Assembly (NCBI GenBank): GCA_015056485.1
Contig: SVGD01000007.1
Location: forward strand, 12,425-76,424
Length of the DNA: 64,000 nucleotides
Direction of reading: 5' to 3'
Origin: Clostridiales bacterium
GTDB lineage: Bacteria > Bacillota > Clostridia > TANB77 > CAG-508
Below, piece by piece: positions 1 to 56,750 of this stretch; the first letter of the stretch is position 1, and every line of letters starts with the position of its first letter. The translations under genes and the position numbers were made by a program. The notes under the pieces were generated by a model. That model was not told the origin of the DNA, did no database searches, and worked only from the letters and a program-made list of their open reading frames with translations.

Positions 1-206
1 TATTATTTTATATTAAAGTTGCAAATGAATTAAATCTTAGTTTAGATTATTTATTTAGCGAGGAATTACCACAAGTAAATACAGAAACAGCTAATAGTAA
101 GGAAATAATTGAAATGATAGATATGTTGAGTAAAGATGAGAAACAAATGGCCAATGTATTTATAAAAAATATTGTTAAAAGTCTAATTGAATTGAGAGAA
201 CAATAG
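1..206 (+). CDS. XRE-family helix-turn-helix transcriptional regulator, C-terminal fragment (5' end outside window)
   Basis: Frame 3 is open from the window edge to TAG at 204-206: ...VANELNLSLDYLFSEELPQVNTETANSKEIIEMIDMLSKDEKQMANVFIKNIVKSLIELREQ*. The motif 'LNLSLDYLF' is the typical end of a Cro/CI-type HTH. The ORF track has no start in the window, so this is not listed there. Same architecture as the XRE gene at 55202..55579, which also abuts a copy of the cassette. Confidence 0.5.
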   Translation, partial: LFYIKVANELNLSLDYLFSEELPQVNTETANSKEIIEMIDMLSKDEKQMANVFIKNIVKSLIELREQ

Positions 207-210
207 TAGC

Positions 211-340
211 TTGACATAATTTTTTGCAAAAACCTTGCAAAATCCTGCAGTATACATTCAATTTTTCAAGTGCTAAAATATTAATATGAAAAATTATATT
301 TAAAGAAAGCGAGAGAAAATCTTGGCTTTCTTTTTTTGTG
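211..340 (+). promoter_or_regulatory. Conserved regulatory cassette copy 1: TTGACA, palindrome TTTTTGCAAAAA (221-232), second TTGCAAAA (235-242), -35-like TATACA (251-256), 17-nt spacer, extended -10 TGcTAAAAT (271-279), leaderless mini-ORF ATG AAA AAT TAT ATT TAA (286-303, MKNYI), terminator hairpin AAAGAAAGC/GCTTTCTTT (302-333) plus T-run
   Basis: Near-identical copies at about 15737, 28050, 42524 and 55577. The -10 and the 17-nt spacing are conserved in all copies. The hairpin stem is conserved while the loops differ. Confidence 0.6.
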
Positions 341-359
341 TACAAAGGAGGAAATAACA

Positions 360-4672: not shown

Positions 4673-6833
4673 ATGAACAAAAGATTAAGTTTAAAAATAG
4701 TAGGTTTAATATTTGCATTTATTATCAGTATATTTTTATCTAGCTTAATTACATTTTGTTTAATGCAAATATTTTTAAAACAACCAGAAAAAATATTAGA
4801 AATTAATGTTTTTAAAGTTATTGAAACTGTAAAAAGTTCAAAAGAAAGTATACAGATTTTCATATTAACAATTATATGCTTTATGCTTTTTGCAACAATT
4901 TCAATTTTTAGATTCTTTAGAGGAAAGAATTATCATAGCAAAACTTATAAAGTAACAGATAACATAGAAATTCCAATGCCTGTTGGGCTTCATCAAAATC
5001 AGCACGGTTCTGTATGGTGGCTAAGCAAAAAGAAATTCAAGAAAACATTTGGCGTAAATACGATAGATGAAGAAAATCCAACAATAAAGGCTTTATTGGA
5101 AAAGGCAGAAGAAGATAGAGGGATAATTGAAAAATCAGAAAAAGATAAAAACACAAAATTAAATTTAGAAGTAGAGCCTTTACCAGAAGAATTAAAAAAA
5201 CCAATATTTAAAAAAGGTGGATTAGTTGTTGGAAAAAAAGACAGGATAATATTTAAACCTTATATAAAAAAGATAAGAATATTCAAAACAAATAAATATC
5301 TAAAAATTCCAACAATTAAAACAAGAAAAGTAGAAGATGTTTATTTTATAGATGATGATTTACATTCGATTACTATAGGTGCAACAAGATCAGGTAAGAC
5401 AAGAAGTTTGGTTCTTCAAAGCATAAATAACATAGCTTTAGCAGGCGAAAATATGGTAATTAGTGATCCAAAAGGAGAATTATTTGAATATACCTGTGTT
5501 GAATTAAAAAGATTAGGATATAACGTATTAACACTAGATTTTAAGACACCACTTAAAAGCTCAAAATATAATTTCCTACAGCCAGTTATTGAAGCAATAA
5601 AACAAAAAAATACACCAAAAGCAGAAAACTATGCAAGTGATATTGTACAAAGTTTAGTTGGAGATGTTAAAGGAAATGGAGAAGCTATTTGGAACAATGG
5701 AGAAAAAGCTGTAATAAGAGCAACTATTATGGCTGTTGTTATGGAAAATATTGAGAATCCTAAACTACAAAATTTACCTAATGTATATCACTTTATAGCT
5801 GAAATGTGTAAAGAACAAGAGGATAAAACAACACTAATAGATACATATTTAGACTTTTTAAAAGAAATAGATAATACGCACCCTGCTATTGCAAGTTTTG
5901 CTCCAGCCCAGATGGCGGCGAGCAAAACGAGAGCGTCTTTTTACACTTCTGCATTATCGACATTAAATATATTTATGGACAGTTATGTAGCAAGTATGAT
6001 TAGTGAAAATGAAATAGATATAAACAAATTTAATGAAGAAAAAACGGCTTTGTTTATGATACTTCCTGATGAAAAAACAACTTTTTATGGTTTATGTAGT
6101 TTATTTGTTAATCAAGTATATACAAAACTTGTAGAAATGGCTGATGAACGTGGTGGGCGTTTAAAAATACGTACGAATTTTGTATTAGACGAATTTCGGA
6201 AACTTTTCACAAATACCAAATTTTCGGTGGTTTTTTAACTGTTGGTGGTCGGAAGACGGAATTAGATTCAATTTATTTGTACAGTCATTTAGTCAGCTAA
6301 ATGAAAAATATGGAGATAATACAGCTCAAAACATTCTTGATAATGCTTATGTGTGGAATTATCTTCGTACGAGTAATGAAACAACAGCTGAAAAGATTTC
6401 CAAAAAAATTGGTACATATACTACAACAAGTTGGTCTGAAAGCAGTGATAAAAAATCTGATAATGGTGGAAGTAATTCAATGAACTTAATTTCAAGAGCT
6501 TTATTAACACCAGATGAAATATTAAGACTTCAAAGACCTTATTTGTTAGTTATGGCTTCAGGAACTGAACCTGCAATAACCAATTCTCCTGATTTAAGTA
6601 AATGGTTATTTAATCGACTTTTAGGATTAGGAGATAAAAACTGGAACATCAAAGTAAGACAGATGAGAGAAGACGCAAGAGAAATAAAAGAAATATCGCC
6701 ACTTCAATTATGGGATATTGATAAACAAACAATGGAATTAAAACAAATGAAAAAAGAAAAAGAACTTGAGGAAAGAAGATTAAACTTTATGAAAAGACAA
6801 GGTGGAATTGACTATCCAAAAGGAAATTTATAG
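4673..6833 (+). pseudogene. Type IV coupling protein (VirD4/TraG family), reading frame broken near 6185-6300 (track ORFs 4673..6238 and 6351..6833)
   Basis: N-terminal TM segments. Walker A 'ITIGATRSGKT...ISDPKGELFEYT' and 'FVLDEF' are present. The C-terminal TraG motifs '...RFNLFVQSFSQLNEKYGDNTAQNILDNAYVWNYLRTSNETTAEKIS' continue in another frame. Pieces of the expected motif (GNFSQIPNF / GGFLTVGG / RFNLFVQSFSQL) lie in three different frames within about 80 nt, next to homopolymer runs. Confidence 0.75.
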
Positions 6834-11370: not shown

Positions 11371-13202
11371 ATGAAAACAAAAGAAATTGAAATAATGCCT
11401 ATAAATCAAGAGTTATTAGCACTTATAACTCCACAAGGGATTGAATTAAAACATAATAAAGTGCAACTTGGAGAATATCAACATAAATTACAGTATGTAA
11501 GTGGCTATCCATCTGCAGTAAATGTAGGTTGGCTTTTAAATCTTAAAGACATACCAAATACAACAGTAAGTCTTGTAATAGCACCAATAGAAAATGTGCA
11601 AGAATATGTAGAAGGAATATCAAAAGGACTAACAACAGATAAAAATATTTATAATACAACTAATAACGAAGCTTTGAAAACACAAGCTGAATTTAAAATA
11701 AGATCAGCAGAAAAGATAATAAAAGATATAACAGTTGATAATATTCCGTATGTAAATGTATCTTTTGTATCAAACACAATTGGCGAAAATGATAATAATT
11801 TTAGCGAAAATTGTAGAACTGTAAGAAATAAAATTGCAGGTATGGGATTAAAAGCAAGAGTTCCTGCATTTACACAAGAAAAAGCATTAAGACAGAGTTC
11901 TCCATATGATACTTATTATCAAGATATAACTAAAATATCTAATAAAACAATGAGCTTAGAAGCATTGTTTTTAGGATTACCTTTTTCAGGAAGTGGATTA
12001 GTAGATGTAGAAGGTTATTATTTAGGAACTGATGAAGATGGAAGAATGATAGCTGTTTCGCCATTTTTCAAAGGAAATGACAGAACTAATTCTAACATTG
12101 TAATTGAAGGTTCTTCTGGTTCAGGAAAATCATTTTTGGCTAAAAAAATAATGCTAAACGAATGGTTAAATCGGTACAAAAATTTTTGCAATTGATCCTG
12201 AATCAGAACTACGCCCTATGTGTAAATTATTGGGTGGAAAATGGATTGATTGTTCAGGAGGAACTGGAAAAAATGTAGGAAGAATAAATCCGTTGCAAGT
12301 AAATCCATTGCCTAAAATTACAGATTTTGAAGATGATGAAGAAGAAGAATATATTTCAAAAAAGTCAGCATTAGGTTTACATTTAGATTTTTTAAGTACA
12401 TTTTTTAAATTATATTATCCTGAAATAACTTCTCTGCAAATGAGCTTATTGATGGAGATATTAGAAGAGTTATATAAAAACTTTAATATTACATATGACA
12501 CAGATATAACAAATATTGATTCAAATAAATTTCCTATTATGGAAGATTTATATGAGTTATTATTAAAAAAAGTAAATTCAAATATCGAGCATAAAAGAGA
12601 AATTGAAGAAATAAGAGCAGTTGTAAGAGAACTTTCAATTGGTCATCACGGAGAAATATTCAATGGTTATACTTCATTAGATTTGGACAGTAGCTTTATA
12701 TGTTTAGATGTTTATAGTTTACAAGGAGCTTCTGAAAAAGTAAAAAGATGTCAGTATTTTAATATATTAAGGTATTGTCAAGATCAAGCTTTTAAAAACA
12801 GAGAAGAGCGTTGTTATGTGGTTTGTGATGAAGCATATTTATTAGTTGATAGAAAAGTACCACAAACAATAGAATTTTTAAGAAATTTCTGTAAGCGTGC
12901 AAGAAAATATGAATGTGGCCTAATGACAATTACACAAAGTTTGGTAGACTTTTTAGCACCAGAAGTTAAGATGTATGGACAAGCATTACTTGACAACTCA
13001 ACTTATAAATTCTTTTTCGGAATAGATCGGAAAAGATTTAGAGGAAGTAGTAAATCTATATAATTTGAATCAAGAAGAAAAAGCTATATTAAGTCAAAAA
13101 GATAAAGGACGTGGATTATTCTTTGTTGGTTCAGGCCATACGTTAATTAATGTTAAAGCTCTTGATTGGGAAAAAGAATATTTAATTGGTGGTGGAAGAT
13201 AA
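11371..13202 (+). pseudogene. VirB4/TcpF-like conjugation ATPase, interrupted by frameshifts near 12180 and 13040 (track ORFs 11371..12195, 12218..13063; C-terminal tail to about 13202)
   Basis: Walker A 'VIEGSSGSGKSFLAKKIM' is present. The continuation 'AIDPESEYRALCKLLGGKWIDCSGG...INPLQV' and the C-terminal tail 'YNLNQEEKAILSQKDKGRGLFFVGSGHTLINVKALDWEKEYLIGGGR*' are in shifted frames. Both breaks sit in A/T homopolymers. Confidence 0.75.
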
Positions 13203-15450: not shown

Positions 15451-15745
15451 GCAAAAATCAATTTATGATAAGGCACTAGAAAAAAAGAAAGAGAACTTAG
15501 AAAGAGAAAATCTTTATAAAAATCTTGATTTAGATCGAGAGAAAAATACAATTATTTTTGAACAAAAAAATAATACATTCATTAAAGTATTGAATTTTTT
15601 GTTAGATACAATTGAAAGAATAATAAAATTTTTTATTATTATAATTGCTTTTATATTATTAACTATTGGAGCAACAGTATTATTCAATCCTGGTTTGAGG
15701 GAGAATCTGTTAGAAATAATTAACAATATAAATATATTGACATAA
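15434..15745 (+). CDS. Small membrane protein
   Basis: 103 aa with a C-terminal hydrophobic helix. Ends inside cassette copy 2. Confidence 0.45.
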   Translation: MLKRNKQKSIYDKALEKKKENLERENLYKNLDLDREKNTIIFEQKNNTFIKVLNFLLDTIERIIKFFIIIIAFILLTIGATVLFNPGLRENLLEIINNINILT

Positions 15746-15806
15746 TTTTTTGCAAAAACATTGCAAAATTCTGCAGTATACATTCAAGAAATAAGGTGCT
15801 AAAATA
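15737..15806 (+). promoter_or_regulatory. Regulatory cassette copy 2 (promoter part): TTGACA 15737-42, palindrome 15746-57, TATACA 15777-82, extended -10 TGcTAAAAT 15797-15805
   Basis: Same sequence family as copy 1. The downstream leader differs; see the finding on 15826..15957. Confidence 0.6.
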
Positions 15807-15974
15807 TAGTTACAAATTAAGAAAAAGGTATGTACTTTTTAAATAAGTATGTAGAGTAAAGCTATATTTTTAAAAATATTATTCTTGCTCCTTTCGGTAA
15901 TATTTTTTGTAATCCCCTTTTATATTTCTTGATCTGCATACTTATTTAAGGAGTACATAAAAAAGGAGGGTAAA

Positions 15975-16394
15975 ATGAAGAAGAAAATAATAATCATATC
16001 AATAATACTACTTGTTATAATTCTAATTATAGTAGGAATTGTTTTATACAAAAATTTTGATAAAACAGATTATGACAGAGTATATATAAGTTCATTTGAT
16101 ATTGATGGAAGATTAGCTGAATATAAGTTTAAGCCAGGAGTAGATACAACAGAAACTTGTAAAATTAAATTTAAGTTAAAAGAAAATTTAAAAGACAACA
16201 TTCGCATAAGTCTTTATAAAATAGAAGATGGAAGAGAATTAAATGTTAAACTGAATGAAAATCTAGAAACAGCTGAATTGCAAAATATTAATGAATTAGA
16301 ATTAAAGCTAGTAGTATATATAGAAAAATCATATGAATTGTTAGATAAAGACTATATTGATATAGGCTATTTATCTATAAATAATGCTAACTAA
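15975..16394 (+). CDS. Membrane-anchored protein (N-terminal TM), unknown function
   Basis: RBS AAAAGGAGGG. 'IIIISIILLVIILIIVGIVL' is a TM helix. Confidence 0.55.
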   Translation: MKKKIIIISIILLVIILIIVGIVLYKNFDKTDYDRVYISSFDIDGRLAEYKFKPGVDTTETCKIKFKLKENLKDNIRISLYKIEDGRELNVKLNENLETAELQNINELELKLVVYIEKSYELLDKDYIDIGYLSINNAN

Positions 16395-24215: not shown

Positions 24216-24252
24216 TGAAGAGAAGAAATTTTGAATTTCTTCTCTTTTTGAA
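24216..24252 (+). terminator. Intrinsic terminator GAAGAGAAGAAATT-ttg-AATTTCTTCTCTT plus TTTT
   Basis: Near-perfect 13-bp stem plus a T-run directly after 23749..24198. Confidence 0.7.
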
Positions 24253-25170: not shown

Positions 25171-27244
25171 ATGCGTTTTTACAATAAAATTGATTTCCCT
25201 GTTGAAGTATTAAGAAAAGCTTGGCAAGAATTTGAATGGGATAAAGCAGAAGAAAAAGTATTTCAATGGCAAAAAGATTTAACAAAAGTAGCATTTAGAA
25301 AAGATTATGAAGAAATAAAAAAAATACAAAATAAAATAGTTAGTTCGTTAGAAGCAAGAGCATTAGCTGTCAGAAGGGTTTCAGAGCAAACAAAGTCATC
25401 TCCTGGAATTGATGGTGTAAGATGGAGAAAAGACGAAGAAAAAATGCAAGCTACTATTTCATTAAATAGTACAGAATACAAGTCAAAACCATTAAGAAGA
25501 ATAGTTATACAAGATAAAAGAGGAATAAAAGAACGTAGGATTGGTATTCCTGCAATGAATGATCGTGCAATGCAAGTATTACATTCTTATGCACTAGAAC
25601 CTGTTGCAGAAGCATTTGGAGATAGAAAATCATTTGCATTTAGAAAAGGAAGAACAGCTTTAGACGCACACGCTTGTTTATGGAATAATTTATGTGATGA
25701 AACGTGTCCTGAATGGGTTTTAATTGCAGATGTAGAGAACTATTACGAATCTGTTTCTCACGATTGGTTAATGAGAAATATTCCAATGAATAAAAGAGTA
25801 TTGAAAGAACTGCTGAAGTCTGGTGTATGTTTTAATGGAGAGATTTTTCCTACTGAAGTTCGGAATTTCACTTGGTTGTTCTTTATCTCCTATGTTAGGA
25901 AATATGATACTAGATGGCCTACAATATAAGCTTTACGATTTACAAGGAGAAAAAATTACAGATTATAAAGATGGGTATATGGTTAGATTTGCAGATGACT
26001 TTGTAATAACAGCAAGAAGTAAAGAACAGGCTGAAAAGTTTAAAGTGGTAGTTGAAAATTTTATAGGAGAAAGAGGTTTAAGGCTGTCAGAAAGGAAAAC
26101 AAAGATTGTTAATGTTAGGGAAGGTTTTGATTTTTTATCAAGGCATTATATAAAAATTCATAATCAAATTAATGTTATTCCTAGCGAAAAATCCGTAACA
26201 AATTTAGAAAAAGAGTTAGAAGATTTAATATTAAATCCTGAAAAGCATTGGACACAAAGATCACTTATTCAATCAATAAACTCTAAATTGTATGGTTGGG
26301 CTACTTATCACAGAGTAGAAGAAGCAAAAGATATTTTTTCTCATATAGATGTCCTGGTTAATGCCTTGTTATTAAAGTTAATGCAAAAAACATATCCTAA
26401 TAAAAGTTTACAGCAATTAAAAAATAAATATTGGTATAAGTTACCTGACGGGAGATATGTATTTGCATTAGTAACTAATAGAAATTTTTCAGTAATTAAT
26501 TTATCAGATATTATTTTGGTAAGACACAAAAGAATGGATTTAAAGAAAAACATATTTTTAGATGATGATTATTTTGAGGAAAGAGAACAACTACAAGAAA
26601 TAAACAAAATATCTGGTAAATACAAAAGTGTTTGGGAAAGACAAGGTGGTAAATGTTATTTTTGTGGTAAGCCAATAGGTAAAGAACAGGATAAAAGGAT
26701 TATTTATAAAACATTTACAAGGATTAATACTATTGAAGATATGGCCTATGTTCACGAGTTTTGTAAAGATGATGATGTACTGTATCTTGATACAGACATT
26801 GTCCATATAAATAATAGTAAGTTAAATAATATCCTTAAAGATATACAAAAAGTAAATCCTAAAAGTAAAACAAAAAAATGGAAGTTTAGAGCGTTAGAAG
26901 ATTATTTTAGAAAAACAAATACAACTCCTATAACATTGAAATTTGCTGAAATTGAAAAAATAATTGGATTTAAACTTTGTGGATCTGCACTAAAATATCC
27001 TTCATATTGGTATCAATCAAGAAAAGGTAATATCTCAAATGCTTGGCTCAATCAAAATTATGAAATTTTGAAATTAGATTTAGAGGGTAAAAAAATAACT
27101 TTTAGAAGGGGTGTAAATAAAAGTTCAAAATTAAATATCCCACAAGTGTTTTTAACCAACAAAATTCCAGATGGTGCAAAATATGAGTTGGAGGAATTTT
27201 TTAAGTATATAACAAAAAAATATGGATTAAGCAATAAAAAATAA
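25171..27244 (+). CDS. Group II intron-like reverse transcriptase/maturase with HNH-like Cys motif and about 170-aa C-terminal extension. No intron RNA. Single-nt frameshift near 25855-25865 (track ORFs 25171..25929 and 25823..27244).
   Basis: RT0/1 'ALAVRRVSEQTKSSPGIDGV', RT2 'RIGIPAMNDRAMQVLHSYALEPVAEAFGDRKSFAFRKGRTALDA', RT3 'WVLIADVENYYESVSHDWL', RT4 'FGISLGCSLSPMLGNMILDGL' (second frame), RT5 'VRFADDFVI', RT7 'GFDFLSRHY' and an X/maturase region '...SINSKLYGWATYH' are all present. The RT4 motif continues only after a one-nt shift around 'gaagttcgg'. Confidence 0.8.
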
Positions 27245-47499: not shown

Positions 47500-48507
47500 A
47501 TGGCAGATGTAAAACAAAAGAAAAAGAAGAAAAATGCAAAAGAAATAATTGAAGAAAACAGAAAAAAGATAGTAGAGCAACTCATTCAAAATATGGAAAA
47601 GGGATATATATTTTCAGAATGGGCTTGGAATAGAAATGCTTTTTTACCTCAAAATGCAATAACTGGCAAAATATATCAAGGAATAAATAGATTAAATTTA
47701 AGTTTAGTAGCAATAGCGAATAAATATGAAGATCCTAGATGGCTAACATATAAAAAGCTTGATGAATTAGGTTATAAATTAAAGGAAGGTTCAAAAGGTA
47801 TATTATGTGAAAAATGGCTGTGGGAAAGACGAGAAAAAGTGGTAAATAAAGAAACTGGCGAAATAGAAAAAGATGAAAACGGAAAAGATAAGTATCAAAT
47901 AATACAACTTGAAAGACCAATTATTAATTTTTTTTATTTATATAATGCTAGTCAAATAGAAGGAATACCACCATATATTGGAGCAAAAACATTAGAAAAA
48001 ACAGATATTTTAGATATTGCTGATAATTTCATTGTTTCATCAGAATGTCCGATAGAAGAGAAATTTCAAGAAAGTGCTTATTATAGTCCAATTGATGACA
48101 AAATAACACTTCCTCCAAGAAAGTTTTTCAAATCTGATGAAGCTTTTTTAGGAACATTGTTACACGAAATGAGCCACTCTACAGGCAATGAAAATAGACT
48201 TAATAGAGATATAAAAAATACATTTGGTACAGAAAAATATGCGATAGAAGAATTAACTGCAGAACTTTCTTGTGTTTTTTTAGAAGCAGAATTGGACAAA
48301 GATATAGACTTTTCAAGGCAAGACCATATTAACTATTTTAATTCTTGGATTCAAGTATTAAAAAATGATCCAAATGAATTATATAAAGTTTGTGCAAATG
48401 CAAGTAAAAGTTGTAATAGATTGATGGGAAACTTTGAAAAAGTAAGGAATATAGAAAATATTCAAATGCTTGTAGATGAAGAAAATGAAATTGATGAAGC
48501 AATATAG
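47500..48507 (+). CDS. ardC: ArdC-like antirestriction protein (ssDNA-binding N-domain plus zincin HExxH domain)
   Basis: 'KIYQGINRLNLSLVAIANKYEDPRWLTYKKLDELGYKLKEGSKG' matches the ArdC-N/DUF1738 pattern (Y.GiN...dPrW.Ty.Q....G..v.kGekg). 'LLHEMSHSTGN' is an HExxH metallopeptidase motif. Confidence 0.8.
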   Translation: MADVKQKKKKKNAKEIIEENRKKIVEQLIQNMEKGYIFSEWAWNRNAFLPQNAITGKIYQGINRLNLSLVAIANKYEDPRWLTYKKLDELGYKLKEGSKGILCEKWLWERREKVVNKETGEIEKDENGKDKYQIIQLERPIINFFYLYNASQIEGIPPYIGAKTLEKTDILDIADNFIVSSECPIEEKFQESAYYSPIDDKITLPPRKFFKSDEAFLGTLLHEMSHSTGNENRLNRDIKNTFGTEKYAIEELTAELSCVFLEAELDKDIDFSRQDHINYFNSWIQVLKNDPNELYKVCANASKSCNRLMGNFEKVRNIENIQMLVDEENEIDEAI

Positions 48508-48522
48508 AAAAGAGGTAATTAA

Positions 48523-49647
48523 ATGGAGGCCTATGGAAATGTTGTAGAAACACCAGTATATAATCAAATAGAAGAAACAAATGAGATATATTTTTCAATT
48601 AAAGTAAAAACAATAAATCAAGAAATAATTAAATTCGCATTGGCAAGTTCAGTAGATAATGATTATGAGAAATATGAATTAGGCAGGCCAATCTATGCTT
48701 CAGTGATAGAAAATGAATTTGGATTGAAAATAGCAAATGAAATTAAATTTCTATCACAAAGAGATTTAATAGATGAAGCTTTAAAAAAATACAATAATAA
48801 AGAAATAAATTTAGAACAATATATTCAAGTATGTAAAGATAACAAAACGTATTTATCAGAAGATATAAAAAGAGAAGAAGTAGAAGAAATAGAATATGAA
48901 CGAAATATTACACGAAAGCCACTTATGAATCAAAAATATAAAGCAAAAGGCGAAATTATAAAAGGATATTCAGAAAATGAGCTTTATGAAATAATAGAAA
49001 ATTATTTAAAAGAAGTGTTGGAATTAAACGATATTGATACAGATATAGTGAATTTTCAGATAATTGGTTCTCGAAATAAGGGAGTTGCAAAAGCAAATTC
49101 AGATTTAGATGTATTAATTGAGTACAATAATGATTGTATAAGTGAAGATAGCTTTTTTGATATACTTAATAACGAAGAAGATAAGCTGATTATAGCTGAT
49201 ATAGAAGTAGATTTTAATCCAATCACATCATCTAAATCAGGAACATTAGAGGAATGGTTAGAAAGAAATTATAATTTTGATAAGTATAAAGAAAATATGA
49301 AAGAATATGCAAGGTATATAATTAACTCTTTAAAAGAAAAATTTAAAGATGAAATTAGTTATGTCTATAAAATTACTTTTCTTAAAGATAATAAAACAGA
49401 TAGATATACTGTTTCTTTAGCAATAGATATAGATAATAATGGAAGTAAAAATCAAATTAATTTCATTTCTGCTGATAAATTTTATAAATTGAATCATAAT
49501 GAACAGGTAAAATATATTGGGAATTTTTATAATGCTTCTATATTAGGGAAAAAGAAAGAAGATTTTGGATATGATGAAGCAAAAAAAGATTTTTTATTGA
49601 TGTGTGATTTTAATTACGCCAGAGATAAAGAAGAGGAGGAATTATAA
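48523..49647 (+). CDS. Nucleotidyltransferase-fold protein (pol-beta superfamily)
   Basis: 'FQIIGSRNKGVAKANSDLDVLIEY' matches the hG[GS]x9-13Dh[DE]h signature. Confidence 0.55.
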   Translation: MEAYGNVVETPVYNQIEETNEIYFSIKVKTINQEIIKFALASSVDNDYEKYELGRPIYASVIENEFGLKIANEIKFLSQRDLIDEALKKYNNKEINLEQYIQVCKDNKTYLSEDIKREEVEEIEYERNITRKPLMNQKYKAKGEIIKGYSENELYEIIENYLKEVLELNDIDTDIVNFQIIGSRNKGVAKANSDLDVLIEYNNDCISEDSFFDILNNEEDKLIIADIEVDFNPITSSKSGTLEEWLERNYNFDKYKENMKEYARYIINSLKEKFKDEISYVYKITFLKDNKTDRYTVSLAIDIDNNGSKNQINFISADKFYKLNHNEQVKYIGNFYNASILGKKKEDFGYDEAKKDFLLMCDFNYARDKEEEEL

Positions 49648-50658
49648 ATGAAAAATATAAATAAGGAAAGTATAAAGCTTCTTTTTAACGAAGGAATAAA
49701 TTTTCTACAATTTCAAATTGAATTACTTGCAGAAAATAATGACAATTTAAAAAATTATACATATATGCAGTATATTGAAAAAAATACTCCACTGATAGCA
49801 AGTGAATCTATTTCGAAGATATTACATAAAGAAGAGTTCTCACAAAAAGTTAAAAAGTTGGCCGACACATTTACTAATATAAAAGAGTATATGCAGTTAA
49901 AAGAAAAAGAAATAAAAAACAACAAACTATGTGGAATAAAAGAATTACAAGATATTTTTACAGATTATACAGATATGTTATTTAACAATTTAGAGAATTT
50001 TGATTTACACGAAAGCTTTGAAGGGTGGACAGAAGATGGAACAATTTATAATACCAGAGCTGATGATAATATAATTTCTTCTCATACAGCAGGAGTAGAA
50101 ACACTATTATTAAATCACTTTTCAGAAGATTTAGACAAGTTTACTTGGGAACTTGCAGATTTGTTAGAGGAGTTTCTGGAATTAACAATTGAAAAAATTA
50201 AATTGATATATAAATATGAAGAGAATGGCAATTATTATTATGAAGATGAAAACGAGAAATTATATTGTGAAAATGGCAACCACAATATAGGAGAAGTATG
50301 TTTATGGCATTGTACGAAGGATTATGGAGAACCTATATGCGAGGTTAAAAATTTAGATAAGTATGAATTAGTTAATAATCCAAAAGATGATCCTAACTTT
50401 GAGAAAAAACAAGCTAACAAATTTGACTATATGATGTTAGGTAGATTACAGTCAGATTGTGATTATTTTTTAGGTTGTGGTAATGGATCTCTTAATTCTC
50501 TTTATTATCACAATGTTGACAGGCATATAGAAGAAATGAAAAAAATATATAATTCTTTTTCAAAAGAAGAAAAACCTGAATGGATAAGTTTAGAAGAAAT
50601 AGACAGCTATCAAGAAAAAATGAATAAAATGTTAGAAAAAGATGAAGAAGAGATATAA
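49648..50658 (+). CDS. Hypothetical Cys-rich acidic protein
   Basis: 336-aa ORF translationally coupled (TAAATG). Confidence 0.45.
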   Translation: MKNINKESIKLLFNEGINFLQFQIELLAENNDNLKNYTYMQYIEKNTPLIASESISKILHKEEFSQKVKKLADTFTNIKEYMQLKEKEIKNNKLCGIKELQDIFTDYTDMLFNNLENFDLHESFEGWTEDGTIYNTRADDNIISSHTAGVETLLLNHFSEDLDKFTWELADLLEEFLELTIEKIKLIYKYEENGNYYYEDENEKLYCENGNHNIGEVCLWHCTKDYGEPICEVKNLDKYELVNNPKDDPNFEKKQANKFDYMMLGRLQSDCDYFLGCGNGSLNSLYYHNVDRHIEEMKKIYNSFSKEEKPEWISLEEIDSYQEKMNKMLEKDEEEI

Positions 50659-50673
50659 AAAAGGAGAAAAGAA

Positions 50674-51786
50674 ATGACTAGGAGAAAAATATATTTTTTT
50701 GATTCAAAAACTAAAAAATTATATTCAACGCCAGAATTTAATGGAGATAAAAATGAATTTGGATTTTTTAGAAAAAGAGGAGATTCTTGTGATAAAAATT
50801 TTGATGAAATTTTAAAAGAATTTGATAATATTAAAACACTAGAAGAGTTTAAAAAAGCTTCTAACAAAGCACAAAGTTATTATCATTCTGGATTTGGAAG
50901 TGATTCAATTCTATCAATAGAAGAAACGAGTAAAGTAACATATAATGATGAAATTTATTTGATTGATAAAGAAGGAAAGCCTTTTCTTTATAATCCACAG
51001 GAATTAAAAAGAGAAAATATTCTTAATATGTGTAACATAGGGAAGTTCATATACAAGGATTTCACAGCAAGCATAAGTAAAATAAAACATTCAGAAAAAA
51101 ATTATGATATTTATATTTTAAATATAGAACCTATTGAAAATATTTATTCAGGATTAGAATTGTATTTAGGAGATTTTGCTAATGATGAAAAAAATAAAAA
51201 TTGGGGTTATAAATTTAATGAAAATATAAATACACTTATTAGAAAACTTGAAGTTTGTAAACAAAACTTAAATAGAAAACCTGTGAAAGTAGAATTGGTA
51301 GATTTATTTAATGTTGAATATAGAATTTGCTTTAAAGATGAAAATGGTAAATTATATGGAGTTTCAAATGGTGGAGATTGTATATTTTTAACAACAATAG
51401 ATAAAAAAGGAAATGAAGAAAGCAAATATTATGACTTTAAAGATCCAATAAAATGGGAAGATAAAAATATATATTCAATATTTTTAGAATCTCATAATGA
51501 TATAGGTTATGAAACAAAACATTTTGATATTCCAAGAATCAAAATGGCATACAAAATAAATTCTTATATTACACAAAAAGAAGATATTTTATATAGTGAA
51601 ACAATAAATAAAAATCTTAATGACATATATGCTGATATTTACAATGTAAAAAGTATAGAAGAAAATTTCTTTAAAGTATATGAAAATGAAAGAGATATTA
51701 AAGAATTGAGAAATGAGTATTATAAATTATTAAATGATACTATGGGAATTGATATTGAAAAAGAAGAAGAGGAGAATGAAATATGA
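50674..51786 (+). CDS. Hypothetical protein
   Basis: 370-aa ORF with RBS AAGGAGAAAAG upstream. Confidence 0.45.
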   Translation: MTRRKIYFFDSKTKKLYSTPEFNGDKNEFGFFRKRGDSCDKNFDEILKEFDNIKTLEEFKKASNKAQSYYHSGFGSDSILSIEETSKVTYNDEIYLIDKEGKPFLYNPQELKRENILNMCNIGKFIYKDFTASISKIKHSEKNYDIYILNIEPIENIYSGLELYLGDFANDEKNKNWGYKFNENINTLIRKLEVCKQNLNRKPVKVELVDLFNVEYRICFKDENGKLYGVSNGGDCIFLTTIDKKGNEESKYYDFKDPIKWEDKNIYSIFLESHNDIGYETKHFDIPRIKMAYKINSYITQKEDILYSETINKNLNDIYADIYNVKSIEENFFKVYENERDIKELRNEYYKLLNDTMGIDIEKEEEENEI

Positions 51787-52007
51787 CAGTATATCAATTG
51801 AATAGAGATGAATTAAGAGAATTAAAGCAAAGACATTATTCTAAAGAACATACAAATTTAAGCTATTATGAAATTGTTTCGATTGATACTTTAGTTACAG
51901 ATGAAGAAATCTATAAAGAATATGGAGATACAATATTTACAACAGAAGATTTTTTCTGTAATTCAAATGATGAAAAAAGAAAAGATGAGGAAGAAAATGA
52001 AATATAA
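51783..52007 (+). CDS. Hypothetical small protein
   Basis: 74-aa ORF with overlapping start/stop. Confidence 0.4.
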   Translation: MTVYQLNRDELRELKQRHYSKEHTNLSYYEIVSIDTLVTDEEIYKEYGDTIFTTEDFFCNSNDEKRKDEEENEI

Positions 52008-52350
52008 ATATATACACTGGCTAAAAATAGACCTTTCAAATGAAACAGAAAATGGAATAGAATGGAGCAACTTAAAAAAATACAAAGAAAACTATGATTG
52101 TAATATAGAAGTATATTATTATGAAAGTAATCCTTTTACTATGAAAGCAATAAAACTTGAATGTAATCAAAGTTACCAGGATTTAGATTTAGATGTTAAT
52201 TCTTCATTTGATGGTAGTTTGATAAGACTAAATAATAAACCTAAAAATATAGAGCCATACAATAAACCAATAGAACAATTCTTTGAAAGATACATAAGAG
52301 TTCATAATAATTTGGGTATAGACGAAGAAAATGAGGAGGAAACACTATGA
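51994..52350 (+). CDS. Hypothetical protein (start at ATG after RBS GAGGAAG; track lists 51901)
   Basis: ORF begins MKYKYIHWLKIDL. Confidence 0.4.
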   Translation, partial: KMKYKYIHWLKIDLSNETENGIEWSNLKKYKENYDCNIEVYYYESNPFTMKAIKLECNQSYQDLDLDVNSSFDGSLIRLNNKPKNIEPYNKPIEQFFERYIRVHNNLGIDEENEEETL

Positions 52351-53297
52351 GAAGTAAAACATATAAATATGATGGAACTGATGAATTTCCTAAAAAAATT
52401 AAAACATCAGATGGTTATATTTTATCAAAATTAAATGATGGATTATATAACAATGCTTTTTTACCTGAATATATTAATGAAAGAGGAGATATTTGTGTAA
52501 TTCCAGATGTTGAAAAATATAGGGTTGTAGAAGAAAATGAATATAGATTTTATATTTATGATTTTTTAATTGGCCAACAGTTATTGACAGTAGATACAAT
52601 AAAAAACAGAACTAGAATAGATTGTTTTAATATATATGGACAATGTTCTACTTTAGGGGAAAAATGGGATAAAGTAACAAAAGCAACTATAAATAAAGCT
52701 TTAAATCGTATTGGTTATTGTATTGATAAATATATAGAAGAGCATTTTACAGACCGAGAAAAAATCTTAAAGGATAAAGTTTTATTCAAGTCAAATGACT
52801 ATAATGAGTGTATAAAATTTTTAGCTGATTACGGAGAAAAAAATCATAATTATACTAAATATACAAGCGAAGAATATGAAAAAAGATATAAAGGATATTA
52901 TAAAAAATACTTAGATATTCCAGAAAATAAAATTGGAGAAATATTAGAAGATGGTACTGTAAAAAAAGAATATTTTCAGGAAGGACATATCTATAAAAAC
53001 ATCTGTAATTTTTATAGACAAGATGGTATTTGCTATATTTCAGAATATCAAGCAGATAAAATCAATAAAAAAAGCAAACCAGGAGAAGATTATGAAACAT
53101 ATCAAACCATTTTTGAAAAGGTAAAAGAAAAATATGAAGAAAGAGGTATTAATTCAGAAAAATATAAGCTTGAAGATTTTGTAGAAACTATATTTAATGA
53201 TCTAAATTGGCAATCTGTCGAAGCATTAACAATAGATTCAATTGACGCATTAGATGATGAATATTTTTTGGATTATGAAGAAAGAGAAAATGAATAA
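52347..53297 (+). CDS. Hypothetical protein
   Basis: 316-aa ORF. Confidence 0.45.
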   Translation: MRSKTYKYDGTDEFPKKIKTSDGYILSKLNDGLYNNAFLPEYINERGDICVIPDVEKYRVVEENEYRFYIYDFLIGQQLLTVDTIKNRTRIDCFNIYGQCSTLGEKWDKVTKATINKALNRIGYCIDKYIEEHFTDREKILKDKVLFKSNDYNECIKFLADYGEKNHNYTKYTSEEYEKRYKGYYKKYLDIPENKIGEILEDGTVKKEYFQEGHIYKNICNFYRQDGICYISEYQADKINKKSKPGEDYETYQTIFEKVKEKYEERGINSEKYKLEDFVETIFNDLNWQSVEALTIDSIDALDDEYFLDYEERENE

Positions 53298-53311
53298 AAA
53301 GGAGATTTTAA

Positions 53312-53638
53312 ATGGACTTAATAGAAATGAATTTACAAAAACAAATTGATAAACTAAAAAACGAAATTCAAAATTGTGATTTTGACGAGTTTGATAATTT
53401 AATACAAAAATATAATTTATTTAATAATGTAAAAAATTCATACACAGAAGAGCTAATTGACTCTGATAGATATAAAAAGATATTAGAAGAAGATGAAGAA
53501 TTGCTTGATAAAATTTATAAAGAGTTTTCTGGATTAAATATGTACTCATTACCTGAAACTTTTGACGAAGTTATATTGGAAGAATTTTTAAACAAATTAA
53601 ATAATTCAAATATGCTTGAAGAAAAAGAAGAGATATAG
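53312..53638 (+). CDS. Hypothetical small acidic protein
   Basis: 108-aa ORF. Confidence 0.4.
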   Translation: MDLIEMNLQKQIDKLKNEIQNCDFDEFDNLIQKYNLFNNVKNSYTEELIDSDRYKKILEEDEELLDKIYKEFSGLNMYSLPETFDEVILEEFLNKLNNSNMLEEKEEI

Positions 53639-53659
53639 GCTGTTGAGGGAGGACTTGAT

Positions 53660-53872
53660 ATGAAAAGAAGTAAAGTTAATTTAAAAGAAAGAATTGAAGA
53701 GAATTTAATGGCATTGGATTTTGATACTCAAAGAATGAGTGAAAGTGGAAATATTGCATATAGAGAACTAAGAAATATAGTAATAGATTTATATAATAAT
53801 AATTTAGAATTAAAAGAAAAAGTTAAACAATATGAAGAAAAATTAAAAGAACAGGAGGAAAAACAATTATGA
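53660..53872 (+). CDS. Hypothetical small coiled-coil protein
   Basis: 70-aa ORF with RBS GGGAGGA upstream. Confidence 0.4.
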   Translation: MKRSKVNLKERIEENLMALDFDTQRMSESGNIAYRELRNIVIDLYNNNLELKEKVKQYEEKLKEQEEKQL

Positions 53873-54666
53873 GTTTTGAAATTGTTAAAGGAATATCAAT
53901 AAAAAAAGGTAAAGTTTTTACTAGAATGTGTAGTAATAATGTTTATCCCTATGAGTTTAAAAGTGAAGAAAATAAATATTTAACGCAAGTTTTAAAAGAA
54001 AATGGATTACTATCGTTATATAAATTACTTGTCGAAGGTGGGCTTGAAGGAAATTTACATTTTCGTAGAAGTAGTGGAAGTCGAATAGTTAAACATTTGG
54101 ATTATGCAGTAAAATCGTTAGAAAAAGATAAAGAATATATTTCGTTAAGGAATAAAGTTTTAGAACTTGAAAATAAACTTTGGGGATTTAAAGAAGAATG
54201 TAAAGAAAAAGAACAATTAAATAAGGAGATAGATAGTTTTAGAGATAGATTAAATAAATATATAGATTTTAAAGTCAGAGAACTTTTTGATTCAAAAATA
54301 AAAGTACCGAGTTCTATAGAAAAAGAATTAGAAAATGTTTTGGAAATGTATGAAGAAAATTTAGAAAATGATGAAGGAGATGTTTTTTCTAGCTCTAAAA
54401 GTAGTTATGCAAATGAAATGCTATCTCAAAATATTTTTGATGTATTAAGCAAAGAAAATGTTGAAAAGATTATGGCATTAAATAATAATTTATATATTGT
54501 TTTAGACTTGAGTTATGCAAATAAAACTTATGATGAAGTATTAAATGAAATTACTGATAAACTAATCGAAAAATTTGAATATTATATAGAGAGTTTAGAA
54601 GATTTTATAAATGTAGTTAAAGAAGAAAATGAAATGGAGGAAAGGAATGAATATTCAATTTCATAA
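53869..54666 (+). CDS. Hypothetical protein
   Basis: 265-aa ORF. Confidence 0.45.
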   Translation: MSFEIVKGISIKKGKVFTRMCSNNVYPYEFKSEENKYLTQVLKENGLLSLYKLLVEGGLEGNLHFRRSSGSRIVKHLDYAVKSLEKDKEYISLRNKVLELENKLWGFKEECKEKEQLNKEIDSFRDRLNKYIDFKVRELFDSKIKVPSSIEKELENVLEMYEENLENDEGDVFSSSKSSYANEMLSQNIFDVLSKENVEKIMALNNNLYIVLDLSYANKTYDEVLNEITDKLIEKFEYYIESLEDFINVVKEENEMEERNEYSIS

Positions 54667-55129
54667 AAATCAATTAAATAATTTATTACTCCAGTTTAAT
54701 GTTGATGATATTTCAATAGAACGAATAGAACTTTTCTTTGAAAACTATACAATAGAAACAAAAGATATGCTTTACTATTATGAATTAATGCTAAATACAA
54801 ATAATGGTGCAGGATTGATGTTTTTAAAAGAAAAATATCAAGATAATTTCATTATAGAAGAATTAATAGATACTAAGATCAAGTATATTGATTTGAGAAT
54901 GAAGGAATACCAAGAAAGATATTTTAAATTCTGCAATATCTTTGTGGGATTTTATGGAACTGACAACAAAGATTTTACCGAAGAGATAGAAAAAATGACA
55001 AACAAAAATAGAAGAAATAAATTTGTTGAAGATAACCTTAATGATATAAATAAATATACTCAACAATATGAAGAACAAGTGAAATTATACAAAGAAGAGC
55101 AAATGCAAAAAGAAGAAAACGAACTATAA
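54647..55129 (+). CDS. Hypothetical protein (start at ATG after RBS GGAGGAAAGG; track lists 54629)
   Basis: ORF begins MNIQFHKNQ... Confidence 0.4.
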   Translation: MNIQFHKNQLNNLLLQFNVDDISIERIELFFENYTIETKDMLYYYELMLNTNNGAGLMFLKEKYQDNFIIEELIDTKIKYIDLRMKEYQERYFKFCNIFVGFYGTDNKDFTEEIEKMTNKNRRNKFVEDNLNDINKYTQQYEEQVKLYKEEQMQKEENEL

Positions 55130-55201
55130 CAATAAGCTAAAAGAAACGGCTTACGGATTATTAAAAAATTTGTCGAAAAATAATATACTGATACTAACTA
55201 T

Positions 55202-55579
55202 ATGTGGAAAGGTCGTAAAAATATGGAAGTAGCAGTAAATTATAATAAAATAGGGGACAAAATTAGAGAAAGAAGAATGTTTTTAAAGATGACACAAGAA
55301 AAATTGGCTAATGAAATAGACGTTTCAGCGTCTTTTATTTCTGATATAGAAAATGGAAGAAGAAAAATGAGTTTAGAAACTATGATAAAAATATCAATTG
55401 TTTTAAAAACAAGTTTAGATTATTTTATATTAGATAATATAAATAGTGTCAAAATAAAAAATGAAATAAAAATAGAACAATTAAAAAATTTGTTACAGCC
55501 AATTGATGAAAAAGAACAATCAACATTCTTAGATTTTACAATTAATTCAGCACGATATTTAGCAAGTCGAAAAAGATAA
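55202..55579 (+). CDS. XRE-family HTH transcriptional regulator abutting cassette copy 5
   Basis: 'MTQEKLANEIDVSASFISDIENGRRKMSLETMIKISIVLKTSLDYFI' is an HTH_3 motif. The stop codon overlaps the first bases of the cassette. Confidence 0.8.
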   Translation: MWKGRKNMEVAVNYNKIGDKIRERRMFLKMTQEKLANEIDVSASFISDIENGRRKMSLETMIKISIVLKTSLDYFILDNINSVKIKNEIKIEQLKNLLQPIDEKEQSTFLDFTINSARYLASRKR

Positions 55580-55698
55580 ACATAATATTTTGCAAAAAGT
55601 TTGCAAAATACTGCAGTATACACTCAAATTTTAATGTGTTAATATTATATTATGAACGGATTAGAGAAAGGAATTTAACATTCTTTTCTCTTTTTTTG
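55577..55698 (+). promoter_or_regulatory. Regulatory cassette copy 5 (TAAACATAATATTTTGCAAAAAGTTTGCAAAATACTGCAG; TATACA 55617-22; TGtTAATAT 55637-45; leaderless mini-ORF MNGLEKGI; hairpin AGAGAAAGGAAT-ttaac-ATTCTTTTCTCT plus T7)
   Basis: Same family as copy 1. 12-bp stem with one G-U pair. Confidence 0.6.
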
Positions 55699-55721
55699 TA
55701 AAAATTTTAGGAGGTAAAAAT

Positions 55722-56342
55722 ATGAGTATTAAAGTTAAATCATTAGGATTAGTGAAAAATGAAGAAATCGAAATAAAGGCAGTAGCTTCAATTGAAGCAA
55801 ATGGAATGAAAATTGATGGAATTAAAATTAATGAGAGTGAAAATGGTAATTATTATTTACAGTTTCCAGAAAGAAAATTCAAAAAGAAAAATACAGATGA
55901 ATTGATTACAACAAGATTAATGTATGTAGATAATGACCTATTTAGAAAAATAAGTGATGTTTTAATAAGTAAATATCAAGAAAAGAAGGAAAATGGAAAT
56001 TTTGAAGTTTCTGAAATAGAAACAGAAAAACAAGATGTTGTTGTAACACAATCAAATCCTTTAAAGGATCAAAGCAGAAAAACAAAAGCAATGGTAAGTA
56101 TAGACGTAAACGGAATACATCTAAAAGATATTAGATTAAATGAAAGTAATGATGGAAATTTATATTTACAATTCCCTAATAGAAAAAATAAAGACGAAGA
56201 ATATGTAGATATGTTTTATCCTACAACATCAGAATTAAGAAAACAATTAACTGAAGAAGCTATAAGCATTTATCAAGAAAAATTGCTAGCAAAAGAATTT
56301 GATGAATCAGCACAAGAACAAGAGGAAGGAGAAAGAGAATAA
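55722..56342 (+). CDS. Tandem SpoVG-domain protein (two SpoVG-like repeats)
   Basis: 'IEIKAVASIEANGMKIDGIKINESENGNYYLQFPERKF...' and 'KAMVSIDVNGIHLKDIRLNESNDGNLYLQFPNRKNK...' each match the SpoVG fold pattern (IkAvasItld..f.ihdirv....nG.fvamPsrk). Confidence 0.65.
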   Translation: MSIKVKSLGLVKNEEIEIKAVASIEANGMKIDGIKINESENGNYYLQFPERKFKKKNTDELITTRLMYVDNDLFRKISDVLISKYQEKKENGNFEVSEIETEKQDVVVTQSNPLKDQSRKTKAMVSIDVNGIHLKDIRLNESNDGNLYLQFPNRKNKDEEYVDMFYPTTSELRKQLTEEAISIYQEKLLAKEFDESAQEQEEGERE

Positions 56343-56343
56343 A

Positions 56344-56748
56344 ATGACAAATGCAGTTAAACTAAATAAAGATGTAAAGAAACATTTGAAGAAAATATAT
56401 ATGAAAGGAAATTTCTCTGATGTCAAAATAAAGGATAAAGAAAGCGAAAGTTGGAATTGGAATAGTATTGGGATAACATTCAAATTTAAAAATGGAATAT
56501 TAGTAAATTTTTGGCTTACAGGAAACACTTTGAAATATACTGTTTTTAGTGTTATACAACCAATGGCTACTTGTAAAGAATATGTAATGTATAGTTATAA
56601 ATCAAGTGAAATAAATGAATTAGACGTGAATATGTTATATTCAGATATTATAAATAAAATAGATAAAATAATTAAACATACAAGATCAGCTGTAGATTGT
56701 ACAGCAATTGATTTTGAGAATATTGATAAAGCAATTGAGGAAATCTAA
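56344..56748 (+). CDS. Hypothetical protein (track start 56299)
   Basis: ATG directly after the stop of the SpoVG gene. Confidence 0.4.
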   Translation: MTNAVKLNKDVKKHLKKIYMKGNFSDVKIKDKESESWNWNSIGITFKFKNGILVNFWLTGNTLKYTVFSVIQPMATCKEYVMYSYKSSEINELDVNMLYSDIINKIDKIIKHTRSAVDCTAIDFENIDKAIEEI

Positions 56749-56750
56749 TT

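Follow-up and report, generated by a model that had tools for sequence, protein, structure and literature searches.

The DNA analysed here (the window) is a stretch of 64,000 nucleotides from a Clostridiales bacterium (assembly GCA_015056485.1, contig SVGD01000007.1, positions 12,425 to 76,424 of the forward strand), in which five operons are headed by copies of one cassette that combines a putative operator, a predicted promoter and, in four of the five copies, an intrinsic terminator placed before the first gene. Judged by its gene content and by the tyrosine integrase, divergent Xre gene and iteron-bearing replication module found just to its left, the window is part of an integrative conjugative element (ICE). 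The left flank was read from the contig of a 'Clostridiales bacterium' metagenome-assembled genome that encodes a 100%-identical ParB-like protein.

The real genes all lie on the + strand (GC content ~25%) and encode, among others, the ParB-like protein, a MobL relaxase, a VirD4-type coupling protein, a VirB4-like ATPase and further type IV secretion system components, an M23 peptidase, a type I restriction-modification system, a sortase, a thioester-type adhesin, ArdC, DarA_C and further anti-restriction domains and a tandem SpoVG protein. A Pfam scan covered ~70 open reading frames (ORFs) of the window, most of which had no match at all. The whole window gave no Rfam match at the gathering threshold and no tRNA gene in a tRNA scan, and a near-identity search with 20-24 kb of it found no close relative among PLSDB or phage records.

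The repeated core and its five copies

A string search of the window identified the core TTTTTGCAAAAACCTTGCAAAAT at positions 221, 15747, 28065, 42534 and 55587, always on the + strand and with 0-3 mismatches, against 0.01 matches expected by chance as estimated from shuffles of the window. The core is ~75 nt long, and a profile built from it, run over the window and the adjoining 10 kb on the left, matched nothing beyond these five. Alignment of the five copies shows a near-invariant block running from ACATAA to TTCAA, a variable stretch of ~9 nt and then GTGnTAnnAT, with unrelated flanks. A first-pass annotation, made by a model from the letters of the window, had described a repeat in five copies with a perfect 12-bp palindrome and a CTGCAG motif. 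The repeat and the CTGCAG are indeed present in all five copies; the palindrome occurs in all five as well, but only copies 1-4 have it at 12 bp, copy 5 carrying a shortened version of 10 bp. The coordinates are collected in Table 1.

Table 1. Positions of the cassette parts and of the genes for candidate regulators (window coordinates unless a locus is named)
Feature	Position	Strand	Details
Copy 1 operator and -35	213..256	+	ACATAA 214-219; palindrome TTTTTGCAAAAA 221-232; TTGCAAAA 235-242; CTGCAG 245-250; TATACA 251-256
Copy 1 extended -10 and predicted start	271..286	+	TGCTAAAAT 271-279; start A 286, predicted from spacing only
Copy 1 intrinsic terminator	303..337	+	hairpin 303-332; T7 331-337
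RBS after copy 1	345-351	+	AAGGAGG; ParB-like gene start 360
Copy 2 operator	15739..15812	+	palindrome 15747-15758; TTGCAAAA 15761-15768; CTGCAG 15771-15776
Copy 2 promoter	within 15739..15812	+	TATACA 15777-15782; TGCTAAAAT 15797-15805; predicted start 15812; no terminator
Copy 2 structured leader	15812..15974	+	15829-15855 pairs with 15932-15958 (26-27-bp long-range stem); precedes 139-aa membrane protein gene 15975-16394
Copy 3 operator	28057..28130	+	palindrome 28065-28076; TTGCAAAA 28079-28086; CTGCAG 28089-28094
Copy 3 promoter	within 28057..28130	+	TATACA 28095-28100; TGTTAAAAT 28115-28123; predicted start 28130
Copy 3 intrinsic terminator	28148..28189	+	hairpin 28148-28184, then T7; secreted-protein gene start 28209
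Copy 4 operator	42526..42599	+	palindrome 42534-42545; TTGCAAAA 42548-42555; CTGCAG 42558-42563
Copy 4 promoter	within 42526..42599	+	TATACA 42564-42569; TGTTAGAAT 42584-42592; predicted start 42599
Copy 4 intrinsic terminator	42617..42661	+	hairpin 42617-42656 (dG about -18), then T7; adhesin gene start ~42688
Copy 5 operator	55579..55652	+	TTTTGCAAAA 55588-55597; TTGCAAAA 55601-55608; CTGCAG 55611-55616
Copy 5 promoter	within 55579..55652	+	TATACA 55617-55622; TGTTAATAT 55637-55645; predicted start 55652
Copy 5 intrinsic terminator	55663..55697	+	hairpin 55663-55691, then T7; tandem-SpoVG gene start 55722
Xre-type HTH gene, 3' end	3..206	+	114 aa in full; stop 5 nt before copy 1; candidate regulator
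Xre-type HTH gene	55202..55579	+	125 aa; stop inside copy 5; paralogue of the Xre before copy 1; candidate regulator
260-aa protein	27265..28047	+	ends 8 nt before copy 3; C-terminal domain with Spo0A DNA-binding fold (predicted); candidate regulator
REC (receiver-domain) protein	L073 8614-9384		~1 kb left of window start; always followed by the Xre gene and cassette copy 1

The module in other genomes

The first-pass annotation had suggested a search of other elements. A scan of one genome per species with TTGCAAAAANNTTGCAAAATNCTGCAG found the core in 72 loci beyond the window. The hosts are uncultured Clostridia or Clostridium genomes from human, mouse, rabbit and ruminant guts, and several of the loci lie on contigs of 160-370 kb. 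Viral contigs contained no copy of the motif, nor did PLSDB plasmids or phage records. Together with the five window copies this gives 77 copies, 59 of which are unique. We found no description of the motif in the literature, a string search for TTTTTGCAAAAA returning irrelevant papers only.

The genes that follow the module fall into several classes. Five are orthologous to the positions in the window (ParB-like/relaxase, membrane protein, secreted protein, adhesin and SpoVG). In two other classes (xis-int) the module is followed by a ribosome-binding site (RBS), a small HTH_17 (Xis-like) gene and a tyrosine integrase gene, with no terminator, and these modules sit at the edge of the element, adjoining chromosomal genes. 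In a further class the leader and terminator lie 400-700 nt upstream of the gene for a large serine recombinase, and one additional class with a terminator was found. In the classes with a terminator the distance from the upstream stop codon to the module is only -21 to +3 nt. Across the relatives and the window the operator thus stands next to the -35 of both excision and transfer operons; the presence of the module in front of xis-int operons and of the serine recombinase gene argues for an element-wide regulon, and at the level of sequence the membership of these operons is clear.

Promoter

The part of the module nearest to the gene has the layout of a sigma-A promoter with an extended -10. 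TATAC[A/T] is separated by exactly 17 nt from the -10 hexamer in all 59 unique copies, all of which also have TG at -15/-14, in agreement with the promoter proposed in the first-pass annotation (TATACA, a 17-nt spacer and TGn, found in 5/5 window copies). The -35 matches the consensus at 4/6 positions (TATACA in all five window copies). The -10 hexamers vary (TAAAAT, TAGAAT, TAATAT, TATACT, TAAAGT, TATATT, TATAGT and TACAGT; in the window TAAAAT in copies 1-3, TAGAAT in copy 4 and TAATAT in copy 5) yet T1, A2 and T6 are kept in 59/59, so that the element can be summarised as TGnTAnAnT. Function has thus been retained through sequence change at the very positions that sigma-A reads, which is strong comparative evidence for the predicted sigma-A promoter. 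An A is located 7 nt downstream of the -10 across the unique copies, and from this spacing we predict it to be the transcription start. Two other promoter assignments were rejected: a sigma-54 promoter, for the module has TT at -24 where an invariant GG is required, and TTGACA at 211-216 as a -35, which has no -10 at 16-18 nt downstream.

Operator

Conservation among the unique copies extends ~40 nt upstream of the -35, with the consensus ACATAAnnTTTTGCAAAAAnnTTGCAAAATnCTGCAGTATAC. This region holds three TGCA-centred boxes, TTTTTGCAAAAA, TTGCAAAA and CTGCAGTA, spaced by 11 and 10 bp, that span about -64 to -34 and are centred at about -60, -49 and -39, the last one touching the -35; all three are kept in 59/59 unique copies. 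In copy 1 they read TGCAAAA (225), TGCAAAA (236) and TGCAGTA (246), and a weaker box, ACATAA, lies further upstream. The search pattern itself imposed part of this conservation. ACATAA and GTATAC were absent from the pattern and are nearly invariant all the same, and the copies found with the profile differ only outside the TGCA cores (CTTGCATTATAC and CCTGCAATATAC), for which reasons we regard the three phased boxes as the invariant feature of the module. No other cluster of TGCA boxes is present in the window.

An array of this kind is the signature of a sequence-specific DNA-binding protein, predicted to occupy one face of the helix. Its fixed placement against a -35 of 4/6 resembles that of a class II activator, and a repressor acting on an otherwise constitutive promoter would be compatible too, given the near-consensus extended -10. 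A CodY box was considered for the palindrome and rejected, the palindrome being of even length and matching at 9/15 positions.

Terminator and leader

In copies 1, 3, 4 and 5 a hairpin followed by T7 lies between the promoter and the RBS, as the first-pass annotation had stated, and the arrangement is found in 29 unique leaders, each with a single hairpin (dG -8.6 to -18.3 kcal/mol) followed by T5-7. The hairpins of these leaders start at +10 to +24 and end at +39 to +57, those of the window (4/5 copies) lying at +13 to +57. They are weak in the ParB class (dG -8.6 to -10) and strong in the adhesin class (dG -14 to -18, T7), and the stems differ from one operon class to another. The stem AAAGAAAGC/GCTTTCTTT that had been proposed as shared is indeed common to copies 1, 3 and 4, but that of copy 5 is different. 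In an alignment of eight sequences of the adhesin and secreted-protein classes, 7/20 stem pairs show double compensatory changes. Scanned over its entire + strand, the window has 13 terminator-like hairpins, 4 of them within 60 nt of the cassette promoters; the hairpin of copy 4 scores as a terminator on the - strand too. We regard the terminator structure as established by this comparative analysis.

The module starts within -21 to +3 nt of the upstream stop, therefore the upstream operon has no other terminator, and only 8-25 nt separate the T-run from the next RBS, therefore the downstream operon has no other promoter. It follows that the hairpin would end one operon and gate the next.

In copies 1, 3, 4 and 5 of the window the predicted +1, which lies 7 nt after the -10, coincides with an ATG that would open the mini-ORFs MKNYI* (copies 1 and 3), MKNYSKKKAIQREQSD (copy 4) and MNGLEKGI (copy 5). 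The first-pass annotation had taken these for a conserved leaderless mini-ORF, translation of which would mask the upstream arm of the terminator. The ATG at the predicted +1 is there in these copies, but neither start, peptide nor stop position is conserved. Of the 29 unique leaders with a terminator, 12 have ATG as the +1 triplet, 16 have ATC and 1 has ATA, and orthologous operons switch between them: the secreted-protein operon has ATG in the window and in L052 and ATC in L018, L008 and L054, and the SpoVG operon has ATG in the window, ATC in L039 and ATA in L058. The leaders of the serine recombinase class all have ATC, and the relatives in the ParB and adhesin classes all keep ATG. Where an ATG is present the peptide is MKNYI, MKNCR, MNGLEKGI or one of 16 to >20 residues (5 to >20 aa overall) and its stop lies before, inside or beyond the hairpin. 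The first 13 nt from the start, AT[G/C]AAAAATT[A/G]TA, are equally conserved in ATC and ATG copies, hence this conservation is not due to coding. In addition, the 10-24 nt before the hairpin leave no room for a competing antiterminator fold. Attenuation by a ribosome on the mini-ORF was thus not borne out; on these sequence comparisons it cannot be the general mechanism, and a role of the mini-ORF in the ParB and adhesin classes is possible.

Copy 2 has no promoter-proximal terminator hairpin. Its leader of ~165 nt is predicted to fold into a long-range stem (dG -41 kcal/mol, z = -4.4), for which five orthologous leaders show 2 double and 5 single compatible changes and 0 broken pairs. The stem encloses an AT hairpin and an unpaired AATCCCC. 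An Rfam search over copy 2 at a relaxed threshold gave chance-level matches only. This leader may act in cis as an RNA, either as antiterminator or as attenuator, or it may terminate transcription of the minus strand. Antiterminator RNAs have precedents in such elements, for instance conAn2 of pLS20 (PMC8191782) and canT of Tn916 (PMC11658703).

Candidate regulators

Several proteins encoded next to cassette copies could act at the operator (Table 1). In 25/25 related loci with enough upstream sequence the gene order is HTH_26 (minus strand), REC protein, Xre, module and ParB, and the identity of the Xre protein among these loci is 75-100%, which is what the reader of an invariant operator would be expected to show. 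The REC protein (model pLDDT 94) has Asn instead of Asp at the phospho-acceptor position in 34/34 aligned homologues, and a C-terminal domain of five helices; this C-terminal half found no match in PDB or Pfam searches. The possibility that it is Spo0A-like was tried by BLAST and by profile-profile comparison with the Spo0A-fold protein encoded before copy 3, and neither found anything. The latter protein had no sequence match in Pfam (including Spo0A_C) or PDB, and its N-terminal domain is not recognisable as a receiver.

The ParB-like protein (encoded at 360-1625, with ParB_N and HTH_ParB domains) is a possible regulator by analogy with KorB, its binding to the operator being putative, and the tandem SpoVG protein is another possible candidate. 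Distant ParB relatives (33-36% identical, metagenomic) lie in ordinary ParA-ParB operons that lack the module and are uninformative on co-variation of operator and regulator. The intergenic region 1625-1792 contains no TGCA boxes, therefore the ribbon-helix-helix protein of the relaxosome is unsupported as operator binder. No FlhDC-family activator was found by Pfam among the scanned ORFs.

A proposed regulon promoter followed by a terminator

We favour, at about an even chance, the reading that the cassette is a regulon promoter followed by an insulating and attenuating terminator, with read-through probably via a trans-acting factor. An element-encoded DNA-binding protein would bind the TGCA boxes on one helix face. 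These boxes lie upstream and reach as far as the -35, so that the operator abuts a sigma-A promoter which depends on its extended -10. A single regulator would in this way switch the excision, transfer, adhesin and anti-restriction operons together. The hairpin would end the upstream operon, insulating the operons from each other, and would also stop transcripts from its own promoter, the downstream genes being expressed only via read-through. A trans-acting factor that loads on the promoter DNA or on the short conserved leader (AT[G/C]AAAAATTATA) would permit read-through, and not a ribosome that translates the mini-ORF. The identity and the sign of the regulator and the regulation of read-through are inferred, as is the start site. 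A trans-acting factor is the most likely source of read-through, with constitutive leakiness nearly as likely, especially for the weak hairpins of the ParB class.

Insulation alone could be achieved with a terminator upstream of the promoter, and the retention of the order promoter-then-terminator at at least 6 kinds of operon head suggests an added condition. Moreover, the xis-int modules and copy 2 have the operator without the terminator, suggesting that the terminator is a second condition for costly late operons, and such a condition points to a trans-acting antiterminator at the promoter or leader. In a more specific form, which we consider possible but rather doubtful, the cassette would be a self-contained licensing device: the terminator would block polymerases arriving from upstream as well as unmodified ones from its own promoter, and an element protein at the TGCA boxes or at the 13-nt leader would make only those that start at this promoter resistant to it. 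If true, this would be Q-like promoter-coupled antitermination at at least 6 operon heads of a Firmicute ICE, and it would separate early operons (xis-int, without terminator) from late ones (transfer, adhesin and anti-restriction).

Several observations weigh against the favoured reading. No sigma factor, NusG paralogue or Q-like protein was found by Pfam in the ~70 scanned ORFs of the window. In copy 2 as well as in the xis-int classes no terminator follows the operator, therefore the two are separable modules and nothing links the operator to antitermination. The weak ParB-class hairpins (dG about -9) may simply leak, and the start site and the efficiency of termination are predictions from sequence. 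Because TGnTAAAAT is near-consensus, the promoter could fire without an activator and the operator may equally bind a repressor. Finally, the model of the Spo0A-fold protein is of moderate confidence (pLDDT 73) and its homologues form 10 clusters only.

The reading that comes nearest, tentative in our view and less probable than the favoured one, is that of a constitutive attenuator and insulator, in which a partly efficient terminator passes a fixed fraction of transcripts, regulation occurs only at initiation via the operator, and no antiterminator exists. The weak ParB-class hairpins, the failure to find an antiterminator-like protein among the Pfam-scanned ORFs, the leader that is too short for an RNA switch and the occurrence of the operator without terminator in other classes all fit it. 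It does not explain why promoter-then-terminator is kept in 29 unique leaders when an upstream terminator would insulate at no cost in expression, and the strong hairpins of the adhesin class fit it poorly. Coupling of read-through to translation, with a ribosome on the leaderless ORF masking the 5' arm of the hairpin, appears very improbable: the ATG in four window copies and in all ParB-class and adhesin-class relatives would suit it, yet 17 of the 29 leaders, orthologues of copies 3 and 5 among them, have ATC or ATA, the peptide length and the stop position relative to the hairpin vary, and the segment from +1 to +13 is equally conserved without the ATG.

A promoter and a terminator with nothing between them, and 13 nt at the 5' end common to several copies, could also mean that each cassette makes a trans-acting RNA of 45-65 nt, the downstream genes being transcribed from elsewhere. 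This has only a slight chance of being correct, as there is no space for another promoter between T-run and RBS, the RNA bodies differ between operon classes and no Rfam family matches. Similarly small is the chance that an alternative sigma factor encoded by the element recognises the conserved block, which would then not be the operator of a separate DNA-binding protein. Tn916-type elements do encode the sigma-like Orf7, and CTGCAGTATAC is invariant at the -35 position here; on the other hand, conservation extends 30 nt upstream of any sigma contact, the extended -10 is of the standard sigma-A kind, the Pfam-scanned ORFs yielded no sigma-70 domain, and the sigma-54 version fails on TT in place of the invariant GG. 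The short palindromes (TTTTTGCAAAAA, CTGCAG and GTATAC) might point to a recombination site or to the terminus of a small mobile element, the latter being among the outcomes that the first-pass annotation had named as overturning its reading. Both can practically be dismissed: all copies have one orientation and lie at fixed, orthologous operon heads in many elements, and neither an inverted partner, inverted terminal repeats, a target duplication, variable insertion sites nor an adjacent transposase was found for the cassette in the window and related loci. The cassette is an operon head.

Comparison with known systems

The functionally closest described system is the SetCD regulon of the SXT/R391 ICEs, in which a 19-bp box next to the -35 is common to the xis, int and transfer operons (PMC4344509). 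With SetCD/AcaCD (SXT/R391 ICEs and IncC plasmids; PMC4344509) the cassette shares the single regulator site by the -35 at the heads of the xis, int and transfer operons. It differs in the box sequence, which is unrelated, in the Firmicute host, in that no FlhDC-type protein was found and in the promoter-proximal terminator after most copies, which is unreported for SetCD promoters. The plasmid counterpart is KorA/KorB of RK2. The KorB operators of this IncP-1 plasmid are 13-bp palindromes that serve as repressor sites at variable distances. Both systems place one short palindromic operator at numerous promoters of a conjugative element that encodes a ParB-family protein, the gene for which is here the first after copy 1; the differences are the fixed position relative to the -35 and the direct-repeat boxes beside the palindrome.

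Spo0A binds tandem 0A boxes next to the -35 (7-bp direct repeats with 10-11-bp spacing, e.g. in spoIIG and abrB; PDB 1FC3 and 1LQ1). The three 7-bp boxes of the cassette have the same 10-11-bp spacing and likewise extend to the -35 of a sigma-A promoter. The protein encoded 8 nt upstream of copy 3 may have the Spo0A DNA-binding fold in its C-terminal domain. However, the box is TGCAAAA and not the 0A-box TGTCGAA, the protein has no Pfam Spo0A_C sequence match and no recognisable receiver as N-terminal domain, and the true receiver encoded nearby carries Asn.

The arrangement PR'-QBE-tR' of phage lambda likewise has a terminator downstream of a promoter with a conserved DNA element, and this terminator stops all transcripts unless a protein that recognises the promoter DNA modifies RNA polymerase. 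Lambda Q has one site per phage, with the Q-binding element between -35 and -10, and requires a sigma-dependent pause. The ICE has several sites, carries its conserved DNA upstream of the -35 and yielded no Q homologue in the Pfam scan; -10-like hexamers do occur within the first 25 transcribed nt (TATATT at +10 to +15 in copy 1), as chance would predict for DNA of 25% GC. Leader-peptide attenuation, with Tn916 tet(M) orf12 and the trp-type attenuators as examples, resembles the window copies, and only these, in having a short ORF before a terminator upstream of structural genes; it differs in that here start codon, peptide and stop are unconserved and no alternative RNA fold exists.

In Tn916 (T1 and canT) and pLS20 (conAn and the zipper attenuator) terminators insulate or attenuate transfer genes too, and read-through needs an element-encoded antitermination device (PMC11658703, PMC8191782, PMC13401043); pLS20 moreover shares the MobL relaxase. 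The device in those systems is one large cis RNA, with or without protein, that follows the main promoter and acts processively on distant terminators, whereas the ICE equips each operon with a separate promoter and, only 10-24 nt after the start, a separate terminator. The four terminator cassettes lack a large structured leader RNA; copy 2 has its 165-nt leader with a 26-bp stem. Thus, lambda, Tn916 and pLS20 have one device per element acting at a distance, and the ICE has a promoter-proximal terminator at each operon head.

An element-wide regulon promoter is ordinary in principle, the unusual part being the repeated coupling of promoter and terminator. The module provides a sequence handle to find and delimit a widespread, uncharacterised family of large ICEs in gut Clostridia (human, mouse, rabbit and ruminant) and predicts the complete regulon of such ICEs from sequence alone, and its conserved and unusual order offers a concrete, testable argument for promoter-coupled antitermination in a conjugative element of Gram-positive bacteria. 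Even with terminators that simply leak, the design would be compact, a single hairpin closing one operon and attenuating the one that follows.

Other features of the element

To the left of the window (L073, ~1800-2010) four direct repeats of TTGTACAGnAAATTGATACAAAA with ~40-bp spacing lie between the divergent Xre gene and a gene with a Phage_rep_org_N domain, and look like the iterons of a replication origin. The intergenic region 1625-1792, located between the ParB-like gene and the ribbon-helix-helix/relaxase genes, contains three GC-richer inverted repeats and is likely the oriT. The VirD4-type coupling protein is split in two ORFs (4673-6238 and 6351-6833), as is the VirB4-like ATPase (11371-12195 and 12218-13063). 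The split of VirD4 recurs in three independent assemblies (L073-L075) and therefore is no sequencing error of this window. A group II intron-type reverse transcriptase (25171-27244) and a transposase-like gene (37814-39338) are each broken into two overlapping ORFs, which may be due to frameshifts or to the decay of insertions in the cargo region.

Genes packed back to back, with overlapping stops and starts, form long runs at ~29200-34900 and ~48500-62700; nearly all of their products have a short acidic C-terminal tail (...EEEEI, ...EEEEL or ...EEENEL) and most lack a Pfam match. A protein of six DUF4379 treble-clef zinc-finger repeats is encoded at 39622-40935, adjoining the genes for an AbrB/MazE-type protein that ends in a zinc ribbon (40961-41215) and for a small HTH protein (41217-41468). 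The + strand has two more clean terminators between genes, at 24218-24246 and 36015-36052 (the latter bidirectional), which mark operon ends that are not followed by a cassette.

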